Source of the DNA: a virus
Lineage: Duplodnaviria > Heunggongvirae > Uroviricota > Caudoviricetes
Virus record (IMG/VR): IMGVR_UViG_2579778899_000011
Location: 1-8,996 of that record
Strand: one strand, 5' to 3'
DNA: 8,996 bases
How positions within the stretch are numbered: the stretch's first letter is position 1; each line of letters opens with the position of its first letter. The notes under the pieces were generated by a model, which did not search any database, was not told where the DNA came from, and was given only the letters and a program-made list of their open reading frames with translations. Shown piece after piece: positions 1 through 8,996 of the stretch. Made by a program: the position numbers and the translations under genes.

Positions 1-12
1 GGTGAGATATTT

Positions 13-363
13 ATGCCATCACGAATCCCACGCGCCTGCCGTAAGCGTGGATGTGCAGGTACAACCACAGACAGTTCTGGTTACTGCGATAAACATCGTG
101 GCGAAGGATGGGTACAGCATCAACGCGGACTGAGCCGCCACCAGCGTGGCTATGGCTCGAAATGGGATGCCATACGTGCGCGCATACTGAAGCGTGATAA
201 TCATCTGTGTCAGAACTGCCTGCGCAATGGGAGAGCCGTTGAAGCCAGAACTGTGGACCACATCATTCCGAAAGCTCATGGTGGCACGGATGCAGACAGT
301 AACCTGCAGAGTCTGTGCTGGCCCTGTCATAAAGCAAAAACAGCGCGCGAACGCATCAATTGA
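13..363 (+). CDS. Phage HNH endonuclease of the type that sits next to cos and the terminase genes in HK97-like phages
   Basis: 116-aa ORF with ATG at 13 and a GGTGAG Shine-Dalgarno at 1-6. N-terminal Cys cluster (CRKRGCAG...GYCDKH) and the HNH core CQNCL...DHIIPKAHGG...N...LCWPCH. Position directly upstream of terS matches HK97-like packaging modules. Confidence 0.85.
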   Translation: MPSRIPRACRKRGCAGTTTDSSGYCDKHRGEGWVQHQRGLSRHQRGYGSKWDAIRARILKRDNHLCQNCLRNGRAVEARTVDHIIPKAHGGTDADSNLQSLCWPCHKAKTARERIN

Positions 364-510
364 TAACAGTTCCCATCTGTAGGGGAGGGGCGGGTCAAAT
401 CTCTGCAACCCTGGCTGCTCAGTACCGCCGCCTGACCCTTCCTCACATCGCCGCAGGTTCGAAAACTTTTTTTGGAAATGTGAACAAACGATTGATAGGT
501 AAGACCGATT

Positions 511-993
511 ATGTCAGGACCTCCGAAAACCCCGCCACGCCTGCATTTGATACGAGGCAACCCCTCAAAGCGCCCCGTTAAAGACCCCAAAAAAACCGCT
601 AAAAAGGATGAAAAAGGTCTTCCTAAAATTCCGCAGCATTTAGGGGCACAGGGGAAGTACTGGTTCAGGCGAATGGCGGAAGAGCTGAATGCGGAAGGGA
701 TCATTTCTCAGCTTGATGCGCGTGCACTCGAGTTGCTGGTGGAAGCCTACACCGAATATCGGCATCACTGCGAAACACTAGATGTTGAGGGGTATACCTA
801 CCGCACGAAAACGCAGAGCGGTGATGTACTGATTAAGGCGCACCCCGCGGCGGCAATGAAAGCGGATGCCTGGAAGCGGATCCGGGCAATGCTTGCAGAG
901 TTTGGTATGTCACCGGCAAGCCGGGCTAAAGTAAATATCGCCGGACCGGATGATGTTGATCCGCTGGCGGAGCTTTTAAAAGCGAGAGACTGA
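511..993 (+). CDS. terS: Terminase small subunit, P27 family
   Basis: 160-aa ORF with a basic N-terminus (GNPSKRPVKDPKK) and the P27-family core YWFRRMAEEL...ARALELLVEAYTEY...GMSPASRAKV. Its stop overlaps the terL start (TGATG at 991-995), indicating translational coupling. Confidence 0.8.
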   Translation: MSGPPKTPPRLHLIRGNPSKRPVKDPKKTAKKDEKGLPKIPQHLGAQGKYWFRRMAEELNAEGIISQLDARALELLVEAYTEYRHHCETLDVEGYTYRTKTQSGDVLIKAHPAAAMKADAWKRIRAMLAEFGMSPASRAKVNIAGPDDVDPLAELLKARD

Positions 994-2186
994 TGGCAAA
1001 AGTGGCTGACGGGATCCGCTACGCCGAACGTGTTGTTGCAGGAGAAATTGTTGCTGGCGAATTTGTCCGCCTGGCCTGCCAGCGTTTTCTTGATGATCTG
1101 AAGTACGGCGAAGAGCGGGGGATTTATTTCAGTGAACCCCGTGCGCAGCACATCCTGAATTTCTACAAATTTGTGCCTCATGTAAAAGGGGCGCTGGCAG
1201 GCCAGCCCATTGAGTTGATGGACTGGCATGTATTTATCCTCATTAATATTTTTGGTTTTGTCATTCCGCTGGTCAATGAAGAGACCGGAGAAGTTGTCAT
1301 GCGCAGCGATGGCAGCGGACGTCCGGTGATGGTGCGCCGGTTCCGGACGGCGTACAACGAAGTCGCCCGTAAAAACGCAAAATCAACTCTGTCATCGGGT
1401 ATCGGCCTGTATATGACGGGGGCAGATGGTGAAGGCGGAGCTGAGGTGTATTCAGCCGCAACCACGCGTGACCAGGCCAGAATCGTGTTTGAAGACGCCA
1501 AAAATATGGTCAGAAAAGCCCGGTCGACACTCGGGCGGTTGTTTGATTTCAACAAGCTGGCGATTTACCAGGAGCAGAGCGCATCAAAATTTGAACCGCT
1601 TTCTTCGGATGCAAACAACCTGGATGGTCTGAACATCCACTGCGCCATTATTGATGAGCTGCATGCACATAAAACCCGTGACGTGTGGGACGTTCTGGAA
1701 ACGGCAACCGGTGCCCGTCTGCAGTCCCTTTTATTTGGTATCACCACGGCAGGGTTTAACAAGGAAGGGATTTGTTACGAGCAGCGTGATTACGCCATCA
1801 AGGTATTGCGTGGCTATAACAGCGACGTGGAGGGCGCTGTAAAAGACGACTCCTACTTTGCGATTATTTACACCCTCGATGAGGGAGATGATCCGTTTGA
1901 TGAAACGGTCTGGCAGAAAGCAAATCCCGGCCTGGGCATCTGTAAACGCTGGGATGATCTGCGTCGTCTGGCGAAAAAAGCGAAAGAACAGGTCTCTGCG
2001 CGGGTGAATTTTTTTACCAAGAAAGTAACATCACGCCGTAACAACAGTGCGACCTGTCCTGATTTTTTTAGTAACCAAATGAAAGAAAAAGATTTTTTCT
2101 TGTTCGTCGTTTTTGTTTTTTCTGGAAGGTTCTGGCTGTTTTCATCATTTGTGTATTGCACTGTGTATTGCAAAAACGGGTTATAA
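993..2186 (+). pseudogene. terL: Terminase large subunit, 5' ATPase portion only; protein-like sequence stops near 2020 and the ORF tail is AT-rich read-through
   Basis: Residues 1-~340 look like a phage large terminase ATPase domain, with a Walker-B-like IHCAIIDELH and a WQKANPGLG segment. After SARVNFFTKK (about 2004-2024) the frame reads TSRRNNSATCPDFF...FLFVVFVFSGRFWLF, which is low-complexity and not protein-like. Full-length large terminases in this family are about 500-600 aa, so the nuclease domain is absent. This length comparison is from memory, not computed. Confidence 0.7.
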
Positions 2187-2191
2187 ATCAC
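2020..2191. other. Probable left attachment junction (attL) of the inserted element: AT-rich spacer with a tandem 11-bp direct repeat just upstream of int
   Basis: Sharp change from terminase coding sequence to AT-rich sequence with T-runs. Tandem repeat tgtgtattgca at 2150-2160 and 2162-2172. The integrase ATG follows at 2192. Confidence 0.4.
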
Positions 2192-3400
2192 ATGGCTCTA
2201 AACAAACTGAGCGATAAAAAACTTCGTTCCCTGCTTGGGCGCAGGAGTGAGAGGCAGGAAACCATCGCTGATGGTAACGGGCTTTCGGTACGGGTCAGTA
2301 AATACGGATGTGTTAGTTTTGTTTTCTTTTACAGACTGGCGGGAAGGGGAACCGCGCCCATCTGGCTGACACTTGGAAAATATCCTGATCTGAGTCTCAA
2401 ATCAGCGAGAGAGATGCGCGATCAGTGTCGAACCTGGCTTGCGGAGGGCAGAGATCCACGGATTCAGATAAAAATTGAACGGGAAGCCACCTTGCAACCT
2501 GTTACCGTTCGTGAGGCACTTGAATACTGGCTTGATAATTATGCAATGGATAAGCGTAGGGGAGCAGAACATATCAGGCAGTGCTTTGGTAAACATATTT
2601 ATCCGGTGATTGGTCATGTACCACTTAGTGATTGCTCTATATCTATGTGGATCAAGTGTTTTGACAAAATAAAAAAAGTAGCACCTGTACAGGCCGGAGC
2701 TTTGTTGCGTATATCAAAACAGGCGCTTAAATTTTGTAGGGTAAGAAAATACGCGATTAGTCATGAAATTGATGATCTTGAGGTCTGTGATGTGGGAAAA
2801 AAGTCTGCGCGAAGAAGCAGGGTTTTAACAGATGATGAAATCAGAGATTTATGGCGAAGTATTAATACTGATTATGACAATCACGAATTATCATATGAAA
2901 ACCGAATTATTTTACGTTTCCTGGTAGTTTTTGGTTGTCGACTGTCAGAAGTATTACTGTCGTCCTGGGTAGAGTGGGATTTTGATAAGAAATTATGGCG
3001 CGTTCCCGCTGATCATAGCAAAAATGGCAGGGAAATAATCAGACCGATTCCTGATGGCATGTTTAACTGGTTAGTTACGTTAAAAAAAATAACAGGTAAC
3101 AAAGAAAATGTGATTGGGTTTGATATGCGTCAGTGTACGGCAAGCGTAACTATCGGTAAGACATGGAAAAGGATGAAACACTCGGAAAAATGGACGGCGC
3201 ATGATATGCGAAGAGTGTTTGCCACAAAGCTAAGTGATCATGGTTTTGAACATAATGTGGTTGAACAGTTGCTTGGGCACACATTAGGCGGTGTTGCCGG
3301 GGTTTATAACAGAAGTCAGTATATGGACAGAAAAAAAGAAGCTATGAACTGGTGGTACGACTATCTGAATAAGCTAATTAGTGGTGACGGTAATGATTGA
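2192..3400 (+). CDS. int: Tyrosine site-specific integrase, P4-like, with an N-terminal arm-type DNA-binding domain
   Basis: 402 aa from the ATG at 2192. N-terminus MALNKLSDKKLRSL...GLSVRVSKYG...F.FFYR is typical of P4-family integrase arm-binding domains. C-terminus carries the catalytic-core pattern ...RLSEVL...HDMRRVFATKL...LLGHTLGGVAGVYNRSQY. Confidence 0.9.
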   Translation: MALNKLSDKKLRSLLGRRSERQETIADGNGLSVRVSKYGCVSFVFFYRLAGRGTAPIWLTLGKYPDLSLKSAREMRDQCRTWLAEGRDPRIQIKIEREATLQPVTVREALEYWLDNYAMDKRRGAEHIRQCFGKHIYPVIGHVPLSDCSISMWIKCFDKIKKVAPVQAGALLRISKQALKFCRVRKYAISHEIDDLEVCDVGKKSARRSRVLTDDEIRDLWRSINTDYDNHELSYENRIILRFLVVFGCRLSEVLLSSWVEWDFDKKLWRVPADHSKNGREIIRPIPDGMFNWLVTLKKITGNKENVIGFDMRQCTASVTIGKTWKRMKHSEKWTAHDMRRVFATKLSDHGFEHNVVEQLLGHTLGGVAGVYNRSQYMDRKKEAMNWWYDYLNKLISGDGND

Positions 3401-3614
3401 AATAGTTACGCGTGAAGAACTTGAAAATGATAAAACAATCGACAGGATGATTAAGGAAGATGAATGTGCATGGTTAACAGCTCTTGGCCGGAGACACAGA
3501 GCATTACTTGAAAAGGAAGGAAAATTTCCACGGAAAATATGTATTGGCCCACAAACAAAAGTCTGGCGCTTATCTGAGGTGCTGGAATGGGTAAAGGGTG
3601 AATGGAAACCCTGA
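3393..3614 (+). CDS. alpA: AlpA-family phage transcriptional regulator/excisionase-like HTH protein (copy 1)
   Basis: Small ORF whose start overlaps the int stop. Carries the AlpA-type motif ...LGRRHRALLEKEGKFPRKICIGPQTKVWRLSEVLEWV. An alternative start exists at 3447. Confidence 0.65.
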   Translation: MIEIVTREELENDKTIDRMIKEDECAWLTALGRRHRALLEKEGKFPRKICIGPQTKVWRLSEVLEWVKGEWKP

Positions 3615-3637
3615 ACTAAATTAAATGAGATATAATC

Positions 3638-3662
3638 AACCCGTCTTTTGGCGGGTTTTTTT
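3638..3662 (+). terminator. Rho-independent terminator after alpA copy 1
   Basis: Hairpin aacccg-tcttttgg-cgggtt followed by a run of 7 T, seen directly in the sequence. Confidence 0.55.
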
Positions 3663-3677
3663 ATAGGTGATATTTTT

Positions 3678-3956
3678 ATGCAAAAATTTATTTATCCTAC
3701 ACCCGAAGAACGCATTCAGATTCTGAAAGAACATGGCGAACCGTATGATCGCCGTATACGCGAACATGAGTGTGCCAATCGTACCGGGCTTTCAAGAAGC
3801 AGACGTTGGGTACTTGAACAGGAGGGAGCATTTCCTGCTCGTGCTCATTTAGGGAAAGTGTCTGTTTCCTGGTTGCTCTCTGATGTGCTCTGGTGGGTTA
3901 TGCATCCGCCAGGAGTAAAGGAAGTAAACAGCCCATACAAAAACGCCAATAAGTAA
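3678..3956 (+). CDS. Second AlpA-like HTH regulator, a paralog of the upstream copy
   Basis: ATG at 3678 with an AGGTGA Shine-Dalgarno at 3665-3670. The track's TTG start at 3648 lies inside the upstream terminator and is rejected. Motif HECANRTGLSRSRRWVLEQEGAFPARAHLGKVSVSWLLSDVLWWV parallels copy 1. Confidence 0.6.
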   Translation: MQKFIYPTPEERIQILKEHGEPYDRRIREHECANRTGLSRSRRWVLEQEGAFPARAHLGKVSVSWLLSDVLWWVMHPPGVKEVNSPYKNANK

Positions 3957-3964
3957 TTACCGAC

Positions 3965-3995
3965 AACCCCGCACCACGCAATGCGGGGTTTTTTG
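3965..3995 (+). terminator. Rho-independent terminator after the second alpA-like gene
   Basis: Stem aaccccgca (3965-3973) pairs with tgcggggtt (3982-3990) around an 8-nt loop, followed by TTTTTG. Confidence 0.6.
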
Positions 3996-4013
3996 TATGT
4001 GAGGTAGAAAGTG

Positions 4014-4607
4014 ATGAATAAAAATATTGCCGCGACGGGCAAGGGTGACGCACGTCATGTGAAAAAATTCTGTGATATTCGTGATCTGGTCGTTCTGCGC
4101 TTTGATAGTGTGAACGTTCGCGTGGTGTATCTGAACGGCGATCCGTGGTTTGTTGGCGCTGATGTGTGTGCGGCGCTGGAAATTAGCAACGTTACCGATG
4201 CTGTTTCAGTTCTGGATAGCGATGAGGTAATGACCCTAGCTTTAACCGAGGGTCATTCAGGTAAGCGTGGTGGTGCCAGAAGTTGGAATGTTGTATCAGA
4301 ATCAGGTTTTTACAAGTTGATCGCCAGAAGTCGCAAAGCTGTTAATCCTGGCACGTTCGCCCATCGTTTCAGTAATTGGGTATTCAGAAATGTGATACCG
4401 GGTATCAGAAAAACGGGGGCTTATGGTATCCCGTGGGGCGCATTACAGGATTTTTCCCGCCGCAAAGAGCAATACCAGATAAGTGCCAGTGAGAAGGGGA
4501 GGGCGCTACAGGCATGTAAGCGCAAAAAGCGTGAACTGGAGGAGGAAGAAAAAAGGCTGATACGTGAATATCAGCCTGAGTTTTACTTTGGTGAGCGTAT
4601 TCAGTAA
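4014..4607 (+). CDS. Bro-N domain protein (phage antirepressor-like N-terminal domain) with a charged, coiled-coil-like C-terminus
   Basis: ATG at 4014 with a GAGGTAG Shine-Dalgarno at 4001-4007. Bro-N signatures: F...IR...DGDPWFVGADVCAALEISN...SESGFYKLIARSRKAVNPGTFAHRFSNWVFRNVIPGIRKTGAYG. C-terminus KRKKRELEEEEKRLIREY. No KilA-C/Ant C-terminal domain is apparent. Confidence 0.7.
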   Translation: MNKNIAATGKGDARHVKKFCDIRDLVVLRFDSVNVRVVYLNGDPWFVGADVCAALEISNVTDAVSVLDSDEVMTLALTEGHSGKRGGARSWNVVSESGFYKLIARSRKAVNPGTFAHRFSNWVFRNVIPGIRKTGAYGIPWGALQDFSRRKEQYQISASEKGRALQACKRKKRELEEEEKRLIREYQPEFYFGERIQ

Positions 4608-4890
4608 CCGCGTACGGTGCTGATTATACGGTACATCGTGTTAACCGGGAAGTTACCCACCAGCAAGGCAAAATCTTCTGCTAAAAAATGACATATGGCC
4701 AGTCGTCCGGAAAGCATGAAATTTTACAAAAATGGAAAATGAAGATTTTTATTGTGCTGGTGGGTAAAAACAAAAAGCGCCCCGTTACCGGAGCGCCCTT
4801 GCGAACAATTAACCTACTGCGCAAAAAATGAATCTGTGCGGGGGGATTATATCAACCGTGGTCGAAATGACCATAGTTGCAGGATAACAG

Positions 4891-4920
4891 GCAAAACAAA
4901 GGCCACCCGCTACGGTGGCC
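4891..4920 (-). terminator. Rho-independent terminator for leftward transcription
   Basis: Perfect 7-bp stem ggccacc/ggtggcc (4901-4920) around a 6-nt loop. On the minus strand it is followed by a U-rich tract (plus-strand caaaacaaa at 4892-4900). Confidence 0.5.
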
Positions 4921-4998
4921 CCTCGACACAAGCACACGTTATCCCCAACGCATGAGCATAACCAACAATGCCACATTTACGGCTGGTGGGCAATGTGA

Positions 4999-5172
4999 TC
5001 AGTCAGATTTGGTTCGTTCCAAGGTTTGCAACGAGAGCTTTTTCCTGTGCTCTTTAAGGAATTTCTCAAGAGCAAAAGCACATGGCGCGAATCTTTCTGA
5101 TTCATGCTCTATCTTTCTGCGCCGTCTTTTCCGTGCCGGTGATAATGTTTTGGTCAATTCTTTATCGGTCAT
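4999..5172 (-). CDS. Hypothetical small, highly basic protein downstream of the RHH-like gene; may be non-coding
   Basis: ORF in the six-frame track (4999-5187). An internal ATG at 5172 has an AGGA-like Shine-Dalgarno. Contains RKRRRRK. No recognisable family. Confidence 0.2.
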   Translation of the reverse strand: MTDKELTKTLSPARKRRRRKIEHESERFAPCAFALEKFLKEHRKKLSLQTLERTKSD

Positions 5173-5229
5173 TGTGTTGTCCTGCATAGCAATGCGCCGT
5201 AGTTACTCACACCACGGCGCTGGTGATGG

Positions 5230-5409
5230 TTACTCCTGCTCTTTGGCCTTGCGACGCTGGCGGTACTCAACTTCTCGCTTTAATGCTGCTGTTACAAACT
5301 GCCCTGTACTTTCACCAGGCATTTTTACCGCCTCAACATTGTTCATAACTTCATGCGGAACCCTTGCCGCAACTGTTTGTGATTTTGCGTTTACTGCTTT
5401 TGTCGCCAT
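5230..5409 (-). CDS. Small ribbon-helix-helix-like DNA-binding protein, candidate repressor of the divergent switch
   Basis: 59-aa ORF translated by hand from the minus strand: MATKAVNAKSQTVAARVPHEVMNNVEAVKMPGESTGQFVTAALKREVEYRQRRKAKEQE. GAGGGG Shine-Dalgarno about 8 nt upstream of the ATG. Not in the supplied track because it is under the length cut-off. The RHH assignment rests on a beta-strand/helix/helix pattern judged by eye. Confidence 0.4.
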   Translation of the reverse strand: MATKAVNAKSQTVAARVPHEVMNNVEAVKMPGESTGQFVTAALKREVEYRQRRKAKEQE

Positions 5410-5459
5410 GTTGTGTACCCCTCACAAAAAACAAATGCAGTATGCAGGAAAAAAAATAA

Positions 5460-5511
5460 GTGTTCAACACTTGACGTGTTTAACACCTGGGTTTAAATTG
5501 GTGTTCAACAC
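5460..5511. promoter_or_regulatory. Divergent promoter/operator region with three copies of an 11-bp palindrome
   Basis: gtgttcaacac at 5460-5470, gtgtttaacac at 5476-5486, gtgttcaacac at 5501-5511. Each is a GTGTT/AACAC inverted repeat. A -35-like ttgacg (5471-5476) and a -10-like taaatt (5494-5499) 17 bp apart sit between and over the operators, pointing rightward toward the operon starting at 5609. Confidence 0.5.
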
Positions 5512-5608
5512 CTTATTAATGCAAGGTGCAGAAACGACGAAACCCGGCAGTGCGCGAACACTAACCGGGCTTCTAACCACCAACGATAGCAAGCGTATCG
5601 AGGTAGCT

Positions 5609-5815
5609 ATGAGAAATCATACCACACACCCGCAAGGGCGGGACTCGCACAACCTGAATAAATACATCTGGCGTTTTATCGCCCTGAGTACGGCACAACC
5701 GCGCGTAATTCACATCGAGGCCACCAGCGAACAGGAAGCACGCCAGCAATCTCCTGATGGCTGCGTGATGGTATTCGCCGCCCGTATTCGTCAGGAGGTG
5801 AGCCATGTGCAATAA
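5609..5815 (+). CDS. Small protein resembling the Icd-like (host cell division inhibitor) family of P4-like elements
   Basis: 68 aa, MRNHTTHPQGRDSHNLNKYIWRFIALSTAQPRVIHIEATSEQEARQQ..., with GAGG just upstream of the ATG. The family assignment is from memory of annotations in P4-like islands, not from a search. Confidence 0.4.
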   Translation: MRNHTTHPQGRDSHNLNKYIWRFIALSTAQPRVIHIEATSEQEARQQSPDGCVMVFAARIRQEVSHVQ

Positions 5816-6050
5816 CACCCGTCCGGACGCAGCCGCCGAAGCTATCAGAACGCTGATGCACGCGCTGATTGATATTTCATGCACGGCAGCAACCGCAGAA
5901 AAACACATTACCAGAGAGACGGAATATACAGGGGCAATAATCCCGCATTCGCTGGTCTACACACAGCTTACCGCTGATATGGCGCTGAATGAGGCTAAAG
6001 CCATCCTGATTGCTGATTGTGAAAATGGCGGGGGCGATTATGCGAAATAA
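5805..6050 (+). CDS. Hypothetical protein, translationally coupled to the upstream gene
   Basis: 81-aa ORF with a strong AGGAGGTG Shine-Dalgarno at 5793-5800. Its ATG at 5805 overlaps the stop of the preceding gene at 5813-5815. Confidence 0.4.
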   Translation: MCNNTRPDAAAEAIRTLMHALIDISCTAATAEKHITRETEYTGAIIPHSLVYTQLTADMALNEAKAILIADCENGGGDYAK

Positions 6051-6258
6051 ACATGATATTGAAGACCTGGCATTTGAAGCCCTGCACTCTGCGAAAAAAA
6101 TCAGGGAAGTCGTCAATATGTGGATGAACAGCCTTAGCACCGATAAATCCGATAGCAGAGAAGAAATTCTTATTTCTTTGTTGTTAGACCTGGCAAATAC
6201 ACAGGTTTCTCTGACATCTGATATTGAGCTCGCCGCTAAAAAGCTGCCTCTGGAGTAA
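6040..6258 (+). CDS. Hypothetical small acidic protein
   Basis: The ATG at 6040 overlaps the stop of the previous gene at 6048-6050. An alternative ATG lies at 6025. No recognisable motif. Confidence 0.35.
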   Translation: MRNKHDIEDLAFEALHSAKKIREVVNMWMNSLSTDKSDSREEILISLLLDLANTQVSLTSDIELAAKKLPLE

Positions 6259-6264
6259 AAAAAC

Positions 6265-6579
6265 ATGAAAAAGAAAAATTCTGGCTTTACTGCCAGCGGT
6301 CACGCTCGGCCTGAAATCCGCCCCGGTGATATTTTCCGGGATAAATACGGCAGCACGATAACGATTAAAACCGTCGATGATTTTCGTGTGACCTATATCC
6401 GCGAAGGTTATGCGCATCCCTGCGTGTCGTCACATATGCGCTTTGACAGGGAGTTCACCCTGGTAAGCAAAGCACCACCAGCAGAATTAAGCGACATCGA
6501 CAGAATCATGCGCGTTACAGGAATGGAACGCATTAAGGCAGTACGTGAAATTATTCGTGAACGGGGAAAGGCAAAATGA
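6265..6579 (+). CDS. Small protein, DUF4222-like, of the kind found immediately upstream of replication genes in P4-like islands
   Basis: 104-aa ORF with a GGAG Shine-Dalgarno about 8 nt upstream. Motif PGDIFRDKYGSTITIKTVDDFRVTYIREGYAHPC. Its stop overlaps the start of the next gene (ATGA at 6576-6579). DUF assignment is from memory. Confidence 0.35.
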   Translation: MKKKNSGFTASGHARPEIRPGDIFRDKYGSTITIKTVDDFRVTYIREGYAHPCVSSHMRFDREFTLVSKAPPAELSDIDRIMRVTGMERIKAVREIIRERGKAK

Positions 6580-8702
6580 AGCGCGCACCAAACTTAAAGC
6601 ACCAGCCAGCCGACAAAATGACGGAGGTTATCATCTTTGCGGGTAGTGATGCGTGGAGCCATGCGAAAGAGTGGCAGGAATGGGCAGGTAAACATATTGC
6701 CGCCGACAATGTGCCGCCTGTCGTTCTGTCAGATGAACACCTGAAAGATATTACTGGTTATCAAATTATTGATGATAGCCGTCAGTGTGTGCGTATTTAC
6801 CGCGCAGGGCACATCACTGAACGTAGCCTCACACAGATCGTCACGTTGCTGGCTGTGGCTGGCGTGAAGACCGTATACGAATACGCGGGGATAACTGACA
6901 CCAGCCCGGCGGATTTATCCGACCAGTTGCCTCGCCTCAAAGACGAATACGAGCGCGGGGAAAGTCTGGTGTTGCCCTTAAAGAAAAAAATCACAGAAAG
7001 CCCGGGTGATGATGAATTAAAGCCCCGCGTTGAAAGCCGCGCCGATGGTGTTTTCTGGGTAACGCCAAAAGTGGATAAGCAGTCAGGCGAAATTATCCGG
7101 CCTGAAACGTGGTTATGCTCCCCGCTTGAGCTACTGGGAACGGGGACAATCGGCAAAGAGCATTACCGCGTGATGCGCTGGAAAAAGCCAGCAAACCATG
7201 ACGTCATCACGATGGCGGTTCCGTGCGGTGGCATTGGCGACCGTGACGGCTGGCGGCTGCTGAAAGACCACGGACTGAACGTGACAACCAACGGTAAATA
7301 CAGGGCTATCCTGGCTGACTGGATGCAGTTAAGCGGAAACCATGAGGAATGGCAGTTAAGCACAACAACGGGCTGGCATTTTGGCGCGTACATCATGCCG
7401 GACGGTTCGGTCATTGGTGATTGCGAAAAGCCAGTCCTGTTTACCGGAAAAACGGCTGCCGTTAATGGTTATTCCGTGGCAGGAACGGCGGAGGGCTGGC
7501 GCGATACCGTGGCGCGACTGGCTGGTGGTAATCCGTCCATGATGCTGGGTGTGGCGGTATCGCTATCCGCACCATTAATCGGGCTGGTGGGCGCTGATGG
7601 CTTCGGGGTACATCTTTTCGAACAGTCATCAGCAGGTAAGACCACAACGCAGAACATCGCATCAAGTTTATGGGGGGAGCCGGACGCACAACGGCTGACC
7701 TGGTACGGCACAGCGTTAGGTATCGCCAACGAAGCAGAGGCACACAATGACGGGCTTTTACCCCTGGATGAAATAGGTCAGGCCGGAAACGCGCGGGAGG
7801 TGTCCACGTCAGCCTATACGCTGTTTAACGGTTCAGGGAAATTACAGGGGGCAAAGGACGGCGGCAACAGGGAGATAAAACACTGGCGAACGGTGGCAAT
7901 CAGTACCGGAGAAATGGACGTTGAAACATTCCTCAAAACGGAGGGGATAAAAGTCAAGGCGGGGCAGCTTGTCCGTCTGCTTAACGTGCCGATGGAAAAA
8001 GCCACGCAGTTTCACGAATACAGCACCGGAAAGGCACACGCAGACGCGTTAAAGGATGCCTGGACAGCAAATCACGGGGCGGCTGGTCGTGAATGGGTTA
8101 AATGGCTGGCAGACCACCAGCAGGAGGCAAAGGACGCGGTAAGGGCATGCCGTGAACGGTGGCGCAATCTGATACCGGAGAGCTACGGCGAACAGGTTCA
8201 CCGCGTGGGTGAGCGATTCGCCATACTGGAGGCCGCGCTTGTGCTTTCCGGTCATGTTACTGGCTGGGATGTTCAGGCGTGCCGCGATGCCATACAGCAT
8301 AATTTTAATGCCTGGGTGAAGGAATTCGGTACGGGTAACAGGGAGTTTAAACAGATGGTTGAACAGGCAGAGGCTTTTTTAGCGTCGTTCGGATTCAGCA
8401 GATACCTTCCGTGGCCCAACACCGACGAGCGTGATTTACCGATTAAAGAGCTTGCCGGATACAGAAAGGGGAGTATCAGAAACGAAGATGACGAGTTCCG
8501 TTTTTACACGTTCCCACATGTATTTGAGGGTGAGATAGCACAGGGATTTAATCCGTCTCACTTTGCCCGCGCGTTGAGTGCTGCCGGAATGCTGGAAGCG
8601 GGTAACGATCGCCGTTACAAGAAAAAGGCGCTCGGCAGGATTGGGGGGAAGCAGCATGTTTTTTACGTGCTGATGTTCCAGCCAGAAAGCGAAGAAGATT
8701 AA
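6576..8702 (+). CDS. Replication initiator, a P-loop NTPase (primase/helicase-like; DUF927 or SF3-like family candidate)
   Basis: 708-aa ORF. Walker A EQSSAGKTT at residues 349-357 (nt 7620-7646). Walker-B-like LLPLDE about 40 residues downstream. A large N-terminal domain has no motif I can name. Lies immediately upstream of an iteron-rich origin-like region. Confidence 0.65.
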   Translation: MKRAPNLKHQPADKMTEVIIFAGSDAWSHAKEWQEWAGKHIAADNVPPVVLSDEHLKDITGYQIIDDSRQCVRIYRAGHITERSLTQIVTLLAVAGVKTVYEYAGITDTSPADLSDQLPRLKDEYERGESLVLPLKKKITESPGDDELKPRVESRADGVFWVTPKVDKQSGEIIRPETWLCSPLELLGTGTIGKEHYRVMRWKKPANHDVITMAVPCGGIGDRDGWRLLKDHGLNVTTNGKYRAILADWMQLSGNHEEWQLSTTTGWHFGAYIMPDGSVIGDCEKPVLFTGKTAAVNGYSVAGTAEGWRDTVARLAGGNPSMMLGVAVSLSAPLIGLVGADGFGVHLFEQSSAGKTTTQNIASSLWGEPDAQRLTWYGTALGIANEAEAHNDGLLPLDEIGQAGNAREVSTSAYTLFNGSGKLQGAKDGGNREIKHWRTVAISTGEMDVETFLKTEGIKVKAGQLVRLLNVPMEKATQFHEYSTGKAHADALKDAWTANHGAAGREWVKWLADHQQEAKDAVRACRERWRNLIPESYGEQVHRVGERFAILEAALVLSGHVTGWDVQACRDAIQHNFNAWVKEFGTGNREFKQMVEQAEAFLASFGFSRYLPWPNTDERDLPIKELAGYRKGSIRNEDDEFRFYTFPHVFEGEIAQGFNPSHFARALSAAGMLEAGNDRRYKKKALGRIGGKQHVFYVLMFQPESEED

Positions 8703-8724
8703 TTTTTTCTCGCGTGTAGGGTGA

Positions 8725-8880
8725 AAATTTTGCGGGTTATGCGGGTTATTTCTGTGGATAAATCAGCATCCATATGATTATTAAAGGAATGACAGAAAAA
8801 TCGTAACCCGCAAAATACCCAAAATAACCCGCAAAACGGCAGTTATAACCCGCAAAAGTGCGATTATAACCCGCAGAATT
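8725..8880. repeat. Origin-of-replication-like iteron array with a DnaA box and an AT-rich spacer
   Basis: Four direct repeats of (t)ataacccgca(a/g)aa at about 8804, 8824, 8845 and 8866, spaced roughly 20-21 bp. Inverted tandem copies gcgggttat at 8731-8749. A perfect DnaA box TTATCCACA on the minus strand (plus tgtggataa, 8753-8761). AT-rich stretch at 8750-8800. Confidence 0.6.
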
Positions 8881-8938
8881 TCACCGTAAGGGTGTAAACA
8901 AGCGTAACCATCAACGTTAAAACCGGAGAGCAGACAGC

Positions 8939-8996
8939 ATGACAGCACAGATAGCGGCTTACGGGCGGCTGGTGGCTGACCCGCAGTTAAAGACCA
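8939..8996 (+). CDS. 5' end of a gene running off the window; N-terminus resembles the start of SSB-type OB-fold proteins
   Basis: ATG at 8939 preceded by GGAGAG. MTAQIAAYGRLVADPQLKT resembles the N-terminal strand of SSB family proteins. Only 19 residues are visible. Confidence 0.25.
   Translation, partial: MTAQIAAYGRLVADPQLKT

Follow-up and report, generated by a model that had tools for sequence, protein, structure and literature searches.

A predicted ribbon-helix-helix repressor with three candidate operators and a probable SymR-like antisense RNA at the replication operon of a helper-embedded phage satellite

IMG/VR record IMGVR_UViG_2579778899_000011, analysed over its positions 1 to 8996 (the window), contains a phage satellite. 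Between a leftward gene for a 59-aa protein and a rightward operon reaching from an Icd-like gene to a primase/helicase gene lies the interval 5410-5620, which is probably the regulatory core of this satellite. The explanation we favour has two layers, repression of transcription by a ribbon-helix-helix (RHH) protein of the YlcI/YnfO family, and a cis-antisense RNA related to SymR. The pairing of repressor and operator is the main support: sites occur at fixed positions in more than 100 related loci, and their core sequence tracks protein residues 9-16, giving about 12 specificity classes. What appears to be new is a YlcI/YnfO-family RHH repressor module in Gram-negative phage-inducible chromosomal islands (PICIs); the kind of module and the genomic context are both known.

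Predicted repressor and operators

An earlier note on this DNA had described three near-identical 11-bp palindromes between divergent genes starting at 5409 (leftward, 59 aa) and 5609 (rightward, Icd-like), overlapping a rightward promoter, and had called the leftward protein RHH-like. These descriptions hold. The list of open reading frames (ORFs) has the same two starts, the palindromes are three exact copies of GTGTTYAACAC to which coordinates can now be assigned, a promoter scan finds TTGACG-17-TAAATT amid them, and the protein has both a YlcI/YnfO family match and a ribbon-helix-helix model. The features are as follows.

5460-5470, GTGTTCAACAC: operator O1, overlapping the -35 of P_L and adjoining the -35 of P_R
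5476-5486, GTGTTTAACAC: operator O2, within the -35/-10 spacer of P_R, at +67 from the repressor ATG in nearly all relatives
5501-5511, GTGTTCAACAC: operator O3, over the expected +1 of P_R
5471-5499, plus strand: P_R, sigma-70-like, TTGACG (5471-5476), 17 nt, TAAATT (5494-5499), from the promoter scan
5440-5468, minus strand: candidate P_L, -35 TTGAAC (5468-5463, inside O1), 17-nt spacer, -10 CATACT (5445-5440), read by eye
5230-5409, minus strand: predicted RHH repressor gene of the YlcI/YnfO family, 59 aa

GTGTTYAACAC has no further exact match anywhere in the 8996-bp window. By chance 0.01 matches are expected, and none of 200 dinucleotide-preserving shuffles reaches three. Among 28 distinct intergenic sequences of the window's class, variation was found at 0 of 30 palindrome arm positions, 2 of 3 centres and 29 of 88 positions elsewhere (Fisher p = 5.6e-5). 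Invariant arms with a variable centre are the pattern expected of a dimer whose two-fold axis would fall on an uncontacted central base pair.

P_R is the one rightward promoter-like site that the consensus scan finds within 4600-6000. Its TTGAC(G) hexamer keeps its offset in most loci of the first comparison, which took in 34, and is mutated in 2 of 80 hold-out loci described below; a TAnnnT -10 located 17-18 nt downstream of TTGAC(G) was seen by eye in a few loci. Candidate P_L was missed by a stricter promoter scan; its stretch is invariant across 28 distinct class-A sequences, and in other classes the equivalent -10, TATACT, adjoins a fourth operator at +22. On either side of the operator block, at 5434-5450 and 5518-5534, stand the two copies of a direct repeat, AATGCAGTATGCAGGAA / AATGCAAGGTGCAGAAA, 84 bp apart. 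The left copy overlaps the P_L -10 and is invariant in 28 close relatives and absent from other classes.

Over residues 9-50 the 59-aa protein scores 59.7 bits (E 2e-16) with the NCBIfam model NF041551 (YlcI/YnfO; DUF3950), whose curated cut-off is 30; it has no Pfam match at E <= 0.01 and no match to a helix-turn-helix (HTH) family. In the modelled monomer, residues 1-18 are extended (ribbon and N-terminal arm) and are followed by helices 19-28 and 35-58, the beta-alpha-alpha order of the Arc/MetJ/CopG RHH superfamily. A PDB sequence search gave spurious matches to DNA polymerase beta alone (E > 0.1); a fold search was needed for this purpose. The predicted placement of a dimer ribbon in the major groove is supported indirectly, by an operator core that co-varies with residues 11-15 and by the unconstrained palindrome centre.

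Homologues of the protein are found across Enterobacterales. A tblastn search found none in 50,697 phage genomes, so that, as far as that collection goes, this is not a borrowed phage immunity gene. The YlcI of Escherichia coli K-12 was rejected as a model for the operators: it lies beside cos/nohD and has no comparable repeated sites, so the satellite proteins form a distinct subgroup. At the K-12 ylcI-nohD locus (L045, 6252-6834), YlcI looks RHH-like by sequence pattern, its gene is divergent from nohD in prophage DLP12, and a cos-like sequence, recognised by eye, adjoins ylcI. A Klebsiella protein (L029) of intermediate sequence has operators.

The 34 loci first compared come from many genera. 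The TTGAC(G) -35 stands at a near-constant offset from the repressor ATG with a site directly after it. Measured from that ATG, 31 loci have O2 at +67 (the full range being +52 to +68), and O3 falls between +75 and +93. A third site is either at +22, where it stands beside the TATACT -10 for leftward transcription, or at +51, the arrangement of the window. The predicted ribbon (residues 9-16) and the operator sequence change together, in classes of which eight are given here (others exist).

QT[VLI]AAR: operator GTGTTnAACAC
KKLEAR: operator GTGGCTGACAC
KRFDVR: operator GTGTCCGACAC
Q[SA]LK[SA]R: operator GTGGGCCACAC
QS[VL]TAR: operator GTGTAAGACAC
QK[LV]Q[AT]R: operator GTGGAGTCCAC
QKMSAR: operator CTGGGTGCCAG
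QKIQAR: operator CTGGAATCCAG

Among 528 locus pairs, the beta-strand octapeptide and the operator are both the same in 52 and both different in 455; a single pair has the same octapeptide with different operators, and 20 have different octapeptides with the same operator. The operators of QK[LV]Q[AT]R and QKIQAR have a common central GA[GA]TC and differ in their outer triplets, GTG versus CTG, a difference that goes with the N-terminal arm, MATGTKN versus MTRDHIN.

A codebook of octapeptide/operator pairs was assembled from 35 loci and fixed before the 80 hold-out loci were fetched from IMG/VR. For 76 of the 80 the octapeptide was already in the codebook. Both operators lie within one mismatch of the prediction in 74 of these 76, any mismatch being at the unconstrained central base; the other two were unscored owing to a mutated -35, and the sites are visible in their sequence. 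Two new classes came from the hold-out loci. The operator that goes with KKIDVR, GTGTCTGACAC, is a single residue-class step and a single base pair away from that of KKLEAR, and KRIDAR pairs with GTGTCCGACAC/GTGTCCCACAC, within one base of the KRFDVR operator.

Recombinant loci place the boundaries of the pairing. In an E. coli locus (L036) both flanks, left of 5314 and right of 5512, match the window with 93-100% identity. Between these positions identity is only 40-67%, over a segment that consists of exactly repressor codons 1-32, the promoters and the operators; the sites of L036 are GTGTAAGACAC. In other E. coli loci homology to the window restarts at 5508, the right edge of O3. Conversely, one relative (L001) has an RHH protein and operators identical to those of the window beside unrelated Int and AlpA proteins, and another (L002), also with unrelated Int and AlpA, has an RHH protein that differs at the C-terminal residue alone (58 of 59 the same) and the same operator sequences. 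Some loci have an Icd-like protein 94% identical or a downstream small protein, orf62, 85% identical, yet a different operator class. AlpA, the Icd-like protein and orf62 were excluded as binders of the palindromes, their distributions being discordant with operator class. For orf62 in particular, the 85% identity between loci of different operator classes indicates that it is not the determinant of operator specificity.

The pairing KRFDVR/GTGTCCGACAC recurs where the rightward gene encodes KilA-N and the leader is absent, so the repressor cassette moves independently of the leader/antisense unit. In the loci concerned, the Salmonella-type contigs L042-L044, the KRFDVR/GTGTCCGACAC unit is divergent from KilA-N, with no Icd-like gene and no antisense RNA, and the element also carries genes for a dATP/dGTP pyrophosphohydrolase and an HTH_17 protein.

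By these comparisons the DNA-reading half of the predicted repressor behaves, with its operators, as a swappable specificity cassette, and enterobacterial satellites would have about 12 immunity types. We consider it quite likely that the 59-aa protein binds O1-O3 and represses P_R.

A predicted SymR-like antisense RNA over the leader

The second layer is a small RNA (sRNA) predicted on the minus strand, opposite the leader of the rightward operon; we hold it to be very likely real.

5529-5608, minus strand: predicted SymR-like cis-antisense sRNA, ~80 nt, from the Rfam match, covariation and the strand of G·U pairs
5607-5602/5581-5576 and 5598-5595/5587-5584, minus strand: 5' helices of the antisense RNA
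5572-5540, minus strand: terminator hairpin of its 3' part, preceded by the linker GUGGUUAGA and followed by a U-rich tail
5506-5608, plus strand: 5' leader of the rightward operon, Shine-Dalgarno GAGGT at 5601-5605, from inverted repeats and leader alignment
5624-5616, minus strand: candidate antisense promoter, extended -10 TGgTATGAT inside Icd-like codons 3-6, read from sequence

The RNA is complementary to the leader and Shine-Dalgarno of the Icd-like gene and ends one base before the ATG at 5609. At the other end of the leader, a 5' hairpin (5508-5527) takes in the right end of O3. A permissive Rfam scan matched the SymR model (RF01809) over its full length, 1-77, at 5536-5608 on the minus strand (32.1 bits, E 0.005). 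The predicted antisense start, 5608-5610, coincides with the 5' end of that match, and TAnnnT hexamers occur at the equivalent promoter place in 30 loci. Like SymR, the predicted RNA is cis-antisense to the site where translation of its neighbouring gene begins, and its predicted promoter falls within that gene.

The structure was evaluated in 31 distinct homologous leaders. RNAalifold gave -33.8 kcal/mol on the minus strand versus -7.9 kcal/mol on the plus strand, and compensatory changes occur in 16 of the 24 predicted pairs. Paired cells make up 96.6%, versus 84% in shuffles and about 40% with partners slid, and on none of five pairing measures did any of 500 shuffles reach the observed value. 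Read on the minus strand, the same pairs contain 110 G·U cells, as against 3 when read on the plus strand, which settles the strand of the RNA as minus. A plus-strand leader structure, riboswitch- or C4-like, was rejected, since its pairs are 82% canonical on the plus strand versus 97% on the minus strand, and the alifold energies agree. The Rfam families for C4, isrK and P4 CI-type immunity RNAs, suggested by the HE-PICI (helper-embedded PICI) paper, have no match at E <= 1 in the window. The apical loop of the RNA's 5' element contains the anti-Shine-Dalgarno in most classes.

A covariance model, R1, built from the satellite RNAs scores the window at 84.9 bits and the PICI EcCICFT073 at 69.5 bits. 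Run against E. coli K-12, it matched the annotated symR on the right strand and at the right coordinates with 33.6 bits (E 9e-7). The satellite RNA and SymR have in common the loop GUGUU(G/C)GCGCAC, their hairpin loops reading GUGUUGGCGCAC versus GUGUUCGCGCAC. The first codons of the genes opposite are also alike, MTDTHSIAQP in symE versus MADIQSTQTRP in many satellite Icd-like genes. At symE (L046, NC_000913.3 4579499-4579911), LexA boxes take the place of the RHH operators of the satellites. From these resemblances symE/symR may derive from a satellite leader/antisense module; the RNA would give the SymR family a branch in mobile elements, and it hints at the origin of symE/symR.

Proposed regulation and alternative explanations

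The regulatory reading involves the two operons that diverge from the interval, and the alpA genes upstream.

5609-8702, plus strand: rightward operon, genes overlapping or abutting
5609-5815, plus strand: Icd-like gene
5805-6050 and 6010-6258, plus strand: small ORFs
6265-6579, plus strand: DUF4222 gene
6576-8702, plus strand: DUF927 primase/helicase gene
4999-5187, minus strand: orf62, a small basic ORF (62 aa) downstream of the repressor gene on the same strand
4898-4923, minus strand: intrinsic terminator of the leftward repressor operon, 10 pairs then TTTGTTTT, no T-run on the plus strand
3381-3614 and 3648-3956, plus strand: alpA paralogues
3638-3657 and 3965-3990, plus strand: strong intrinsic terminators, one directly after each alpA gene

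The product of the Icd-like gene matches NF033153 (Icd-like). Within the rightward operon the plus-strand terminator scan gives one weak hairpin (5 pairs, 7451-7463), and the promoter scan gives no site, its sole one being at 8789, past the operon end; both counts are below shuffle expectation. orf62 is probably co-transcribed with the repressor gene. It has no Pfam or NCBIfam match, and a homologue follows the RHH gene in EcCICFT073.

In the first layer, RHH dimers would bind one per 11-bp palindrome, the beta-ribbon (residues ~10-16) reading the central 5 bp and the N-terminal arm the outer GTG/CAC triplets. Occupation of O2 in the spacer and O3 at +1 would block RNA polymerase at P_R and keep the Icd-like-to-primase/helicase operon silent. 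O1, over the -35 of P_L, would provide negative autoregulation of the repressor, a role that in most other classes would fall to the site at the P_L start. In the second layer, a constitutive antisense RNA of ~80 nt, starting just inside the Icd-like gene, would pair with the leader and Shine-Dalgarno of leaky P_R transcripts and so block Icd-like translation. By analogy with P1 c4/icd/ant it would probably also have a polar effect on the replication genes, which overlap, further downstream.

As to the trigger, our guess is rightward transcription that resists termination or depends on AlpA and crosses the convergent repressor operon, or alternatively an antirepressor of the helper or the satellite. 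The strong plus-strand terminators behind both alpA genes imply that rightward transcription into the Bro zone and further would need antitermination or separate promoters. The hairpins at 4773-4800 and 4898-4923 have a T-run on the leftward strand alone, so in a helper-embedded element Q-modified late transcription could cross the repressor operon into the replication genes. The satellite's Bro-N protein is not supported as a dedicated antirepressor: L002, with its near-identical RHH protein, has no Bro-N homologue within 4 kb, and many other loci have none.

Several observations weigh against this two-layer explanation. P_R has an imperfect -10 (TAAATT), and P_L is imperfect in both hexamers. 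For the antisense RNA the candidate promoter is a TAnnnT/extended -10 match alone, with a weak -35. The 32-bit score against SymR is far below the Rfam gathering threshold of 61 bits for the family, and the satellite RNA is regarded as a relative of SymR, not a curated family member. The operators and the 5' end of the repressor gene lie within 100 bp, and part of their co-variation reflects linkage, which inflates the simple counts; for this reason the argument is based on 2-4 sites changing in concert, on recombinant boundaries and on recurrence in different contexts. In our comparisons these three are not explained by linkage alone. Finally, over-expression of AlpA alone is reported to induce EcCICFT073 (PMC6092414), which carries the module. 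This implies that the module is overridden or bypassed there, or is not the master control, or acts chiefly in copy control.

Copy control is the alternative that survives best, as a possible but doubtful explanation. It holds that the RHH protein and antisense RNA act mainly after excision as a plasmid-style copy-number or incompatibility control, like CopG and RNA II of pMV158, and that induction is set by AlpA or helper late transcription. An RHH repressor with an antisense RNA is a classic replication-control pair, the controlled operon ends in a primase/helicase gene, and the AlpA result fits. The many specificity classes, and up to six matching places per genome, would fit incompatibility groups, and records of 10-17 kb deposited as plasmids and taken as circular carry the RHH gene. 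Against it, the repressor is encoded opposite the operon, unlike CopG, which lies within the operon it represses; its synthesis would be constitutive and not coupled to dosage. Copy control is also compatible with a master-repressor role, the two views not being exclusive.

That the RHH protein and orf62 form a type II toxin-antitoxin pair, with the palindromes merely its autoregulatory operator, is very improbable. The partner gene is not conserved, since L036 and L038 have unrelated products of 57-75 aa, L039 one of 108 aa and L042 one of 248 aa; orf62 matches no toxin family; and in every class the two best-conserved sites are over P_R, not P_L. We give hardly any credence to the palindromes as sites for AlpA or another satellite activator of the rightward operon, with the leftward protein irrelevant. 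AlpA is the known activator of Gram-negative PICI genes and two alpA paralogues lie upstream, but L001 (identical) and L002 (same) have their operators beside unrelated Int and AlpA, in the cassette swap and in the hold-out test alike the operator class goes with the first 32 codons of the RHH gene, and the spacer and +1 placements are those of a repressor, not an activator. A reading of the repeats as chance matches, or as RNA or DNA hairpins such as terminators, is favoured by a scan that flags GGTGTTCAACACC as a weak terminator-like hairpin and is effectively refuted by the comparative data: three matches stand against 0.01 expected, a 5-bp stem with a 1-nt loop is unstable, O1 and O2 are upstream of the start site, the arms are invariant with a variable centre, and the sites change in concert with the protein.

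The two-layer module is of a known kind. RHH repressors, palindromic operators at divergent promoters and antisense RNA occur together in P22 immI and pMV158. The immI region of P22 (Mnt/Arc, P_ant/P_mnt, sar) has no detectable sequence homology to the satellite module; it has two RHH genes and one 17- to 21-bp operator, where the satellite has one RHH gene and three 11-bp palindromes, and it controls an antirepressor with sar as its RNA, where the satellite would control Icd-like and replication genes with a SymR-like RNA. In pMV158/pLS1, a rolling-circle plasmid, CopG is the first gene of the operon that it represses (repB; RNA II), whereas the satellite repressor is divergent from its operon and the window has an integrated phage satellite with a primase/helicase. 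SymE/SymR resembles the module in having the sRNA promoter in the first codons of the target and the RNA over the Shine-Dalgarno (for SymR also over the AUG), and differs in its target, SymE versus the Icd-like protein. In P1 c4/icd/ant, blocked icd translation leads to Rho-dependent termination before ant. P1/P7 immI is like the proposed satellite module in that translation of an Icd-family first gene is blocked by a small RNA, which sets downstream expression. The C4 RNA of P1/P7 and the CI RNA of P4 arise by processing on the same strand, and their action on the leader is in trans, whereas the satellite RNA is predicted to be cis-antisense.

The earlier note had compared the interval to the stl/str arrangement of Staphylococcus aureus pathogenicity islands (SaPIs), as a divergent switch controlling the replication operon. 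The likeness of layout stands: a leftward repressor gene is divergent from a rightward replication operon, and the operator and promoter positions and the pairing evidence support control of that operon. The likeness does not extend to the protein. Stl proteins are far bigger, contact DNA with a helix-turn-helix domain and are derepressed when a helper-phage protein binds them, and the satellite protein is a 59-aa RHH protein with no HTH family match, set apart from Stl by description. Bistability finds no support, as no Str- or Cro-like counter-repressor gene was identified in the satellite. SaPI Stl/Str has many allelic specificities (PMC6092414).

The same note had contrasted such a switch with AlpA-driven control in Gram-negative PICIs. 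This is a false dichotomy, since EcCICFT073, the model element for AlpA, also has this RHH/operator/antisense/Icd-like module. Genes for a YlcI/YnfO and an Icd-like protein are in its current RefSeq annotation, along with two GTGGGCCACAC sites, a degenerate third, and the predicted antisense RNA. Gram-negative PICIs are described as activated by AlpA, with a global repressor called 'unclear' (Fillol-Salom et al. 2018, PMC6092414). The note's further proposal, that 5410-5620 is the key control point of satellite induction, stays an inference. A broader reading is tentative: many Gram-negative PICIs, EcCICFT073 included, would be silenced by this two-layer module, with the RHH protein as master repressor, at least 12 orthogonal immunity types and a SymR-family RNA; satellite induction would be committed by relief of the module, through an antirepressor from the helper or through read-through that AlpA or Q drives; and symE/symR would be a domesticated descendant rewired to LexA.

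Of 5426 complete E. coli genomes, 1744 match the 5150-5900 region in part and 435 have a match that spans 80% or more of the region, with up to 6 places per genome. The passages of PMC10111431 and PMC6092414 that were searched describe no RHH repressor with its operators and no antisense RNA, and C4/isrK-type RNAs in the Bro zone are the sole RNAs mentioned in those of PMC10111431. A 2026 survey lists 'YlcI/YnfO, prophage-associated protein' as an accessory gene only. Among full-text literature, limited to open-access articles, nothing was found that links RHH, YlcI/YnfO or SymR to satellites; an earlier description elsewhere is possible. The module is a concrete and widely distributed candidate for the silencing of Gram-negative PICIs, a question that is now testable through its predictions that the 11-bp sites are bound, which residues set specificity, and which protein/operator pairs are orthogonal. 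The codebook would amount to a set of tiny orthogonal repressors, for example KKLEAR/GTGGCTGACAC, KKIDVR/GTGTCTGACAC and KRFDVR/GTGTCCGACAC, and a natural system for the evolution of RHH specificity.

The satellite and its genomic setting

By its sequence the element in the window is a helper-embedded PICI of Mageeney et al. 2023 (PMC10111431), a context already known. From base 3 to 2020 the window matches the HNH-terS-terL region of Escherichia phages with 95-99% identity, and the match ends inside terL; the terL ORF is interrupted near 2020 and continues into satellite sequence as far as 2186. The satellite is inserted in terL in the same orientation, with int next on the same strand. In the relative L001 (E. 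coli TUM9812) both halves of a split terL surround a similar element. The diagnostic given for HE-PICIs in PMC10111431 is a doubled TGTATTGC integrase arm motif ~132 bp downstream of the crossover. The window has an exact copy of the arm motif, TGTATTGCACTGTGTATTGC, at 2152-2171, 132 bp from the junction at ~2020, so that both the motif and the published distance are present.

On the terL strand the order after terL is integrase, two AlpA paralogues and a Bro-N protein. Beyond Bro-N come the two small leftward genes and then, rightward, the Icd-like gene, two small ORFs, DUF4222 and the DUF927 primase/helicase. The window thus has the int, alpA and primase/replication gene order of Gram-negative PICIs. 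Its domain matches include Phage_integrase with Arm-DNA-bind_3, two Phage_AlpA, and the DUF927 helicase/primase.

A second sRNA-like unit lies at 4773-4873 on the minus strand. It has an extended -10 promoter (TGGTCA, 16 nt, TGaTATAAT, 4873-4846) and, ~65 nt after the promoter, a strong terminator at 4800-4773 (12 pairs and a T-run). The unit is 89-93% conserved in EcCICFT073 and three other loci, a diversity too low for a covariation test. It has no credible Rfam match, the terminator region giving only a chance-level hit to sau-6072 (E 0.75, well below gathering).

Three small records deposited as plasmids, NZ_CP148328.1 (10.8 kb), NZ_CP142848.1 (10.5 kb) and CP018459.1 (17.0 kb), encode RHH homologues. 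Such records may be excised satellites, replicating or assembled as circles.

In E. coli CP028381.1 (L038), a second, unrelated RHH-like gene (VSTHKNERRGNPPFQFRL...) is found at 3455-3864 with a palindrome-rich region upstream. A second R1-type antisense RNA lies at 3540-3628 (64.7 bits), and the rightward gene is, by eye, seemingly truncated. This second unit looks like the remnant of a tandem second switch module.

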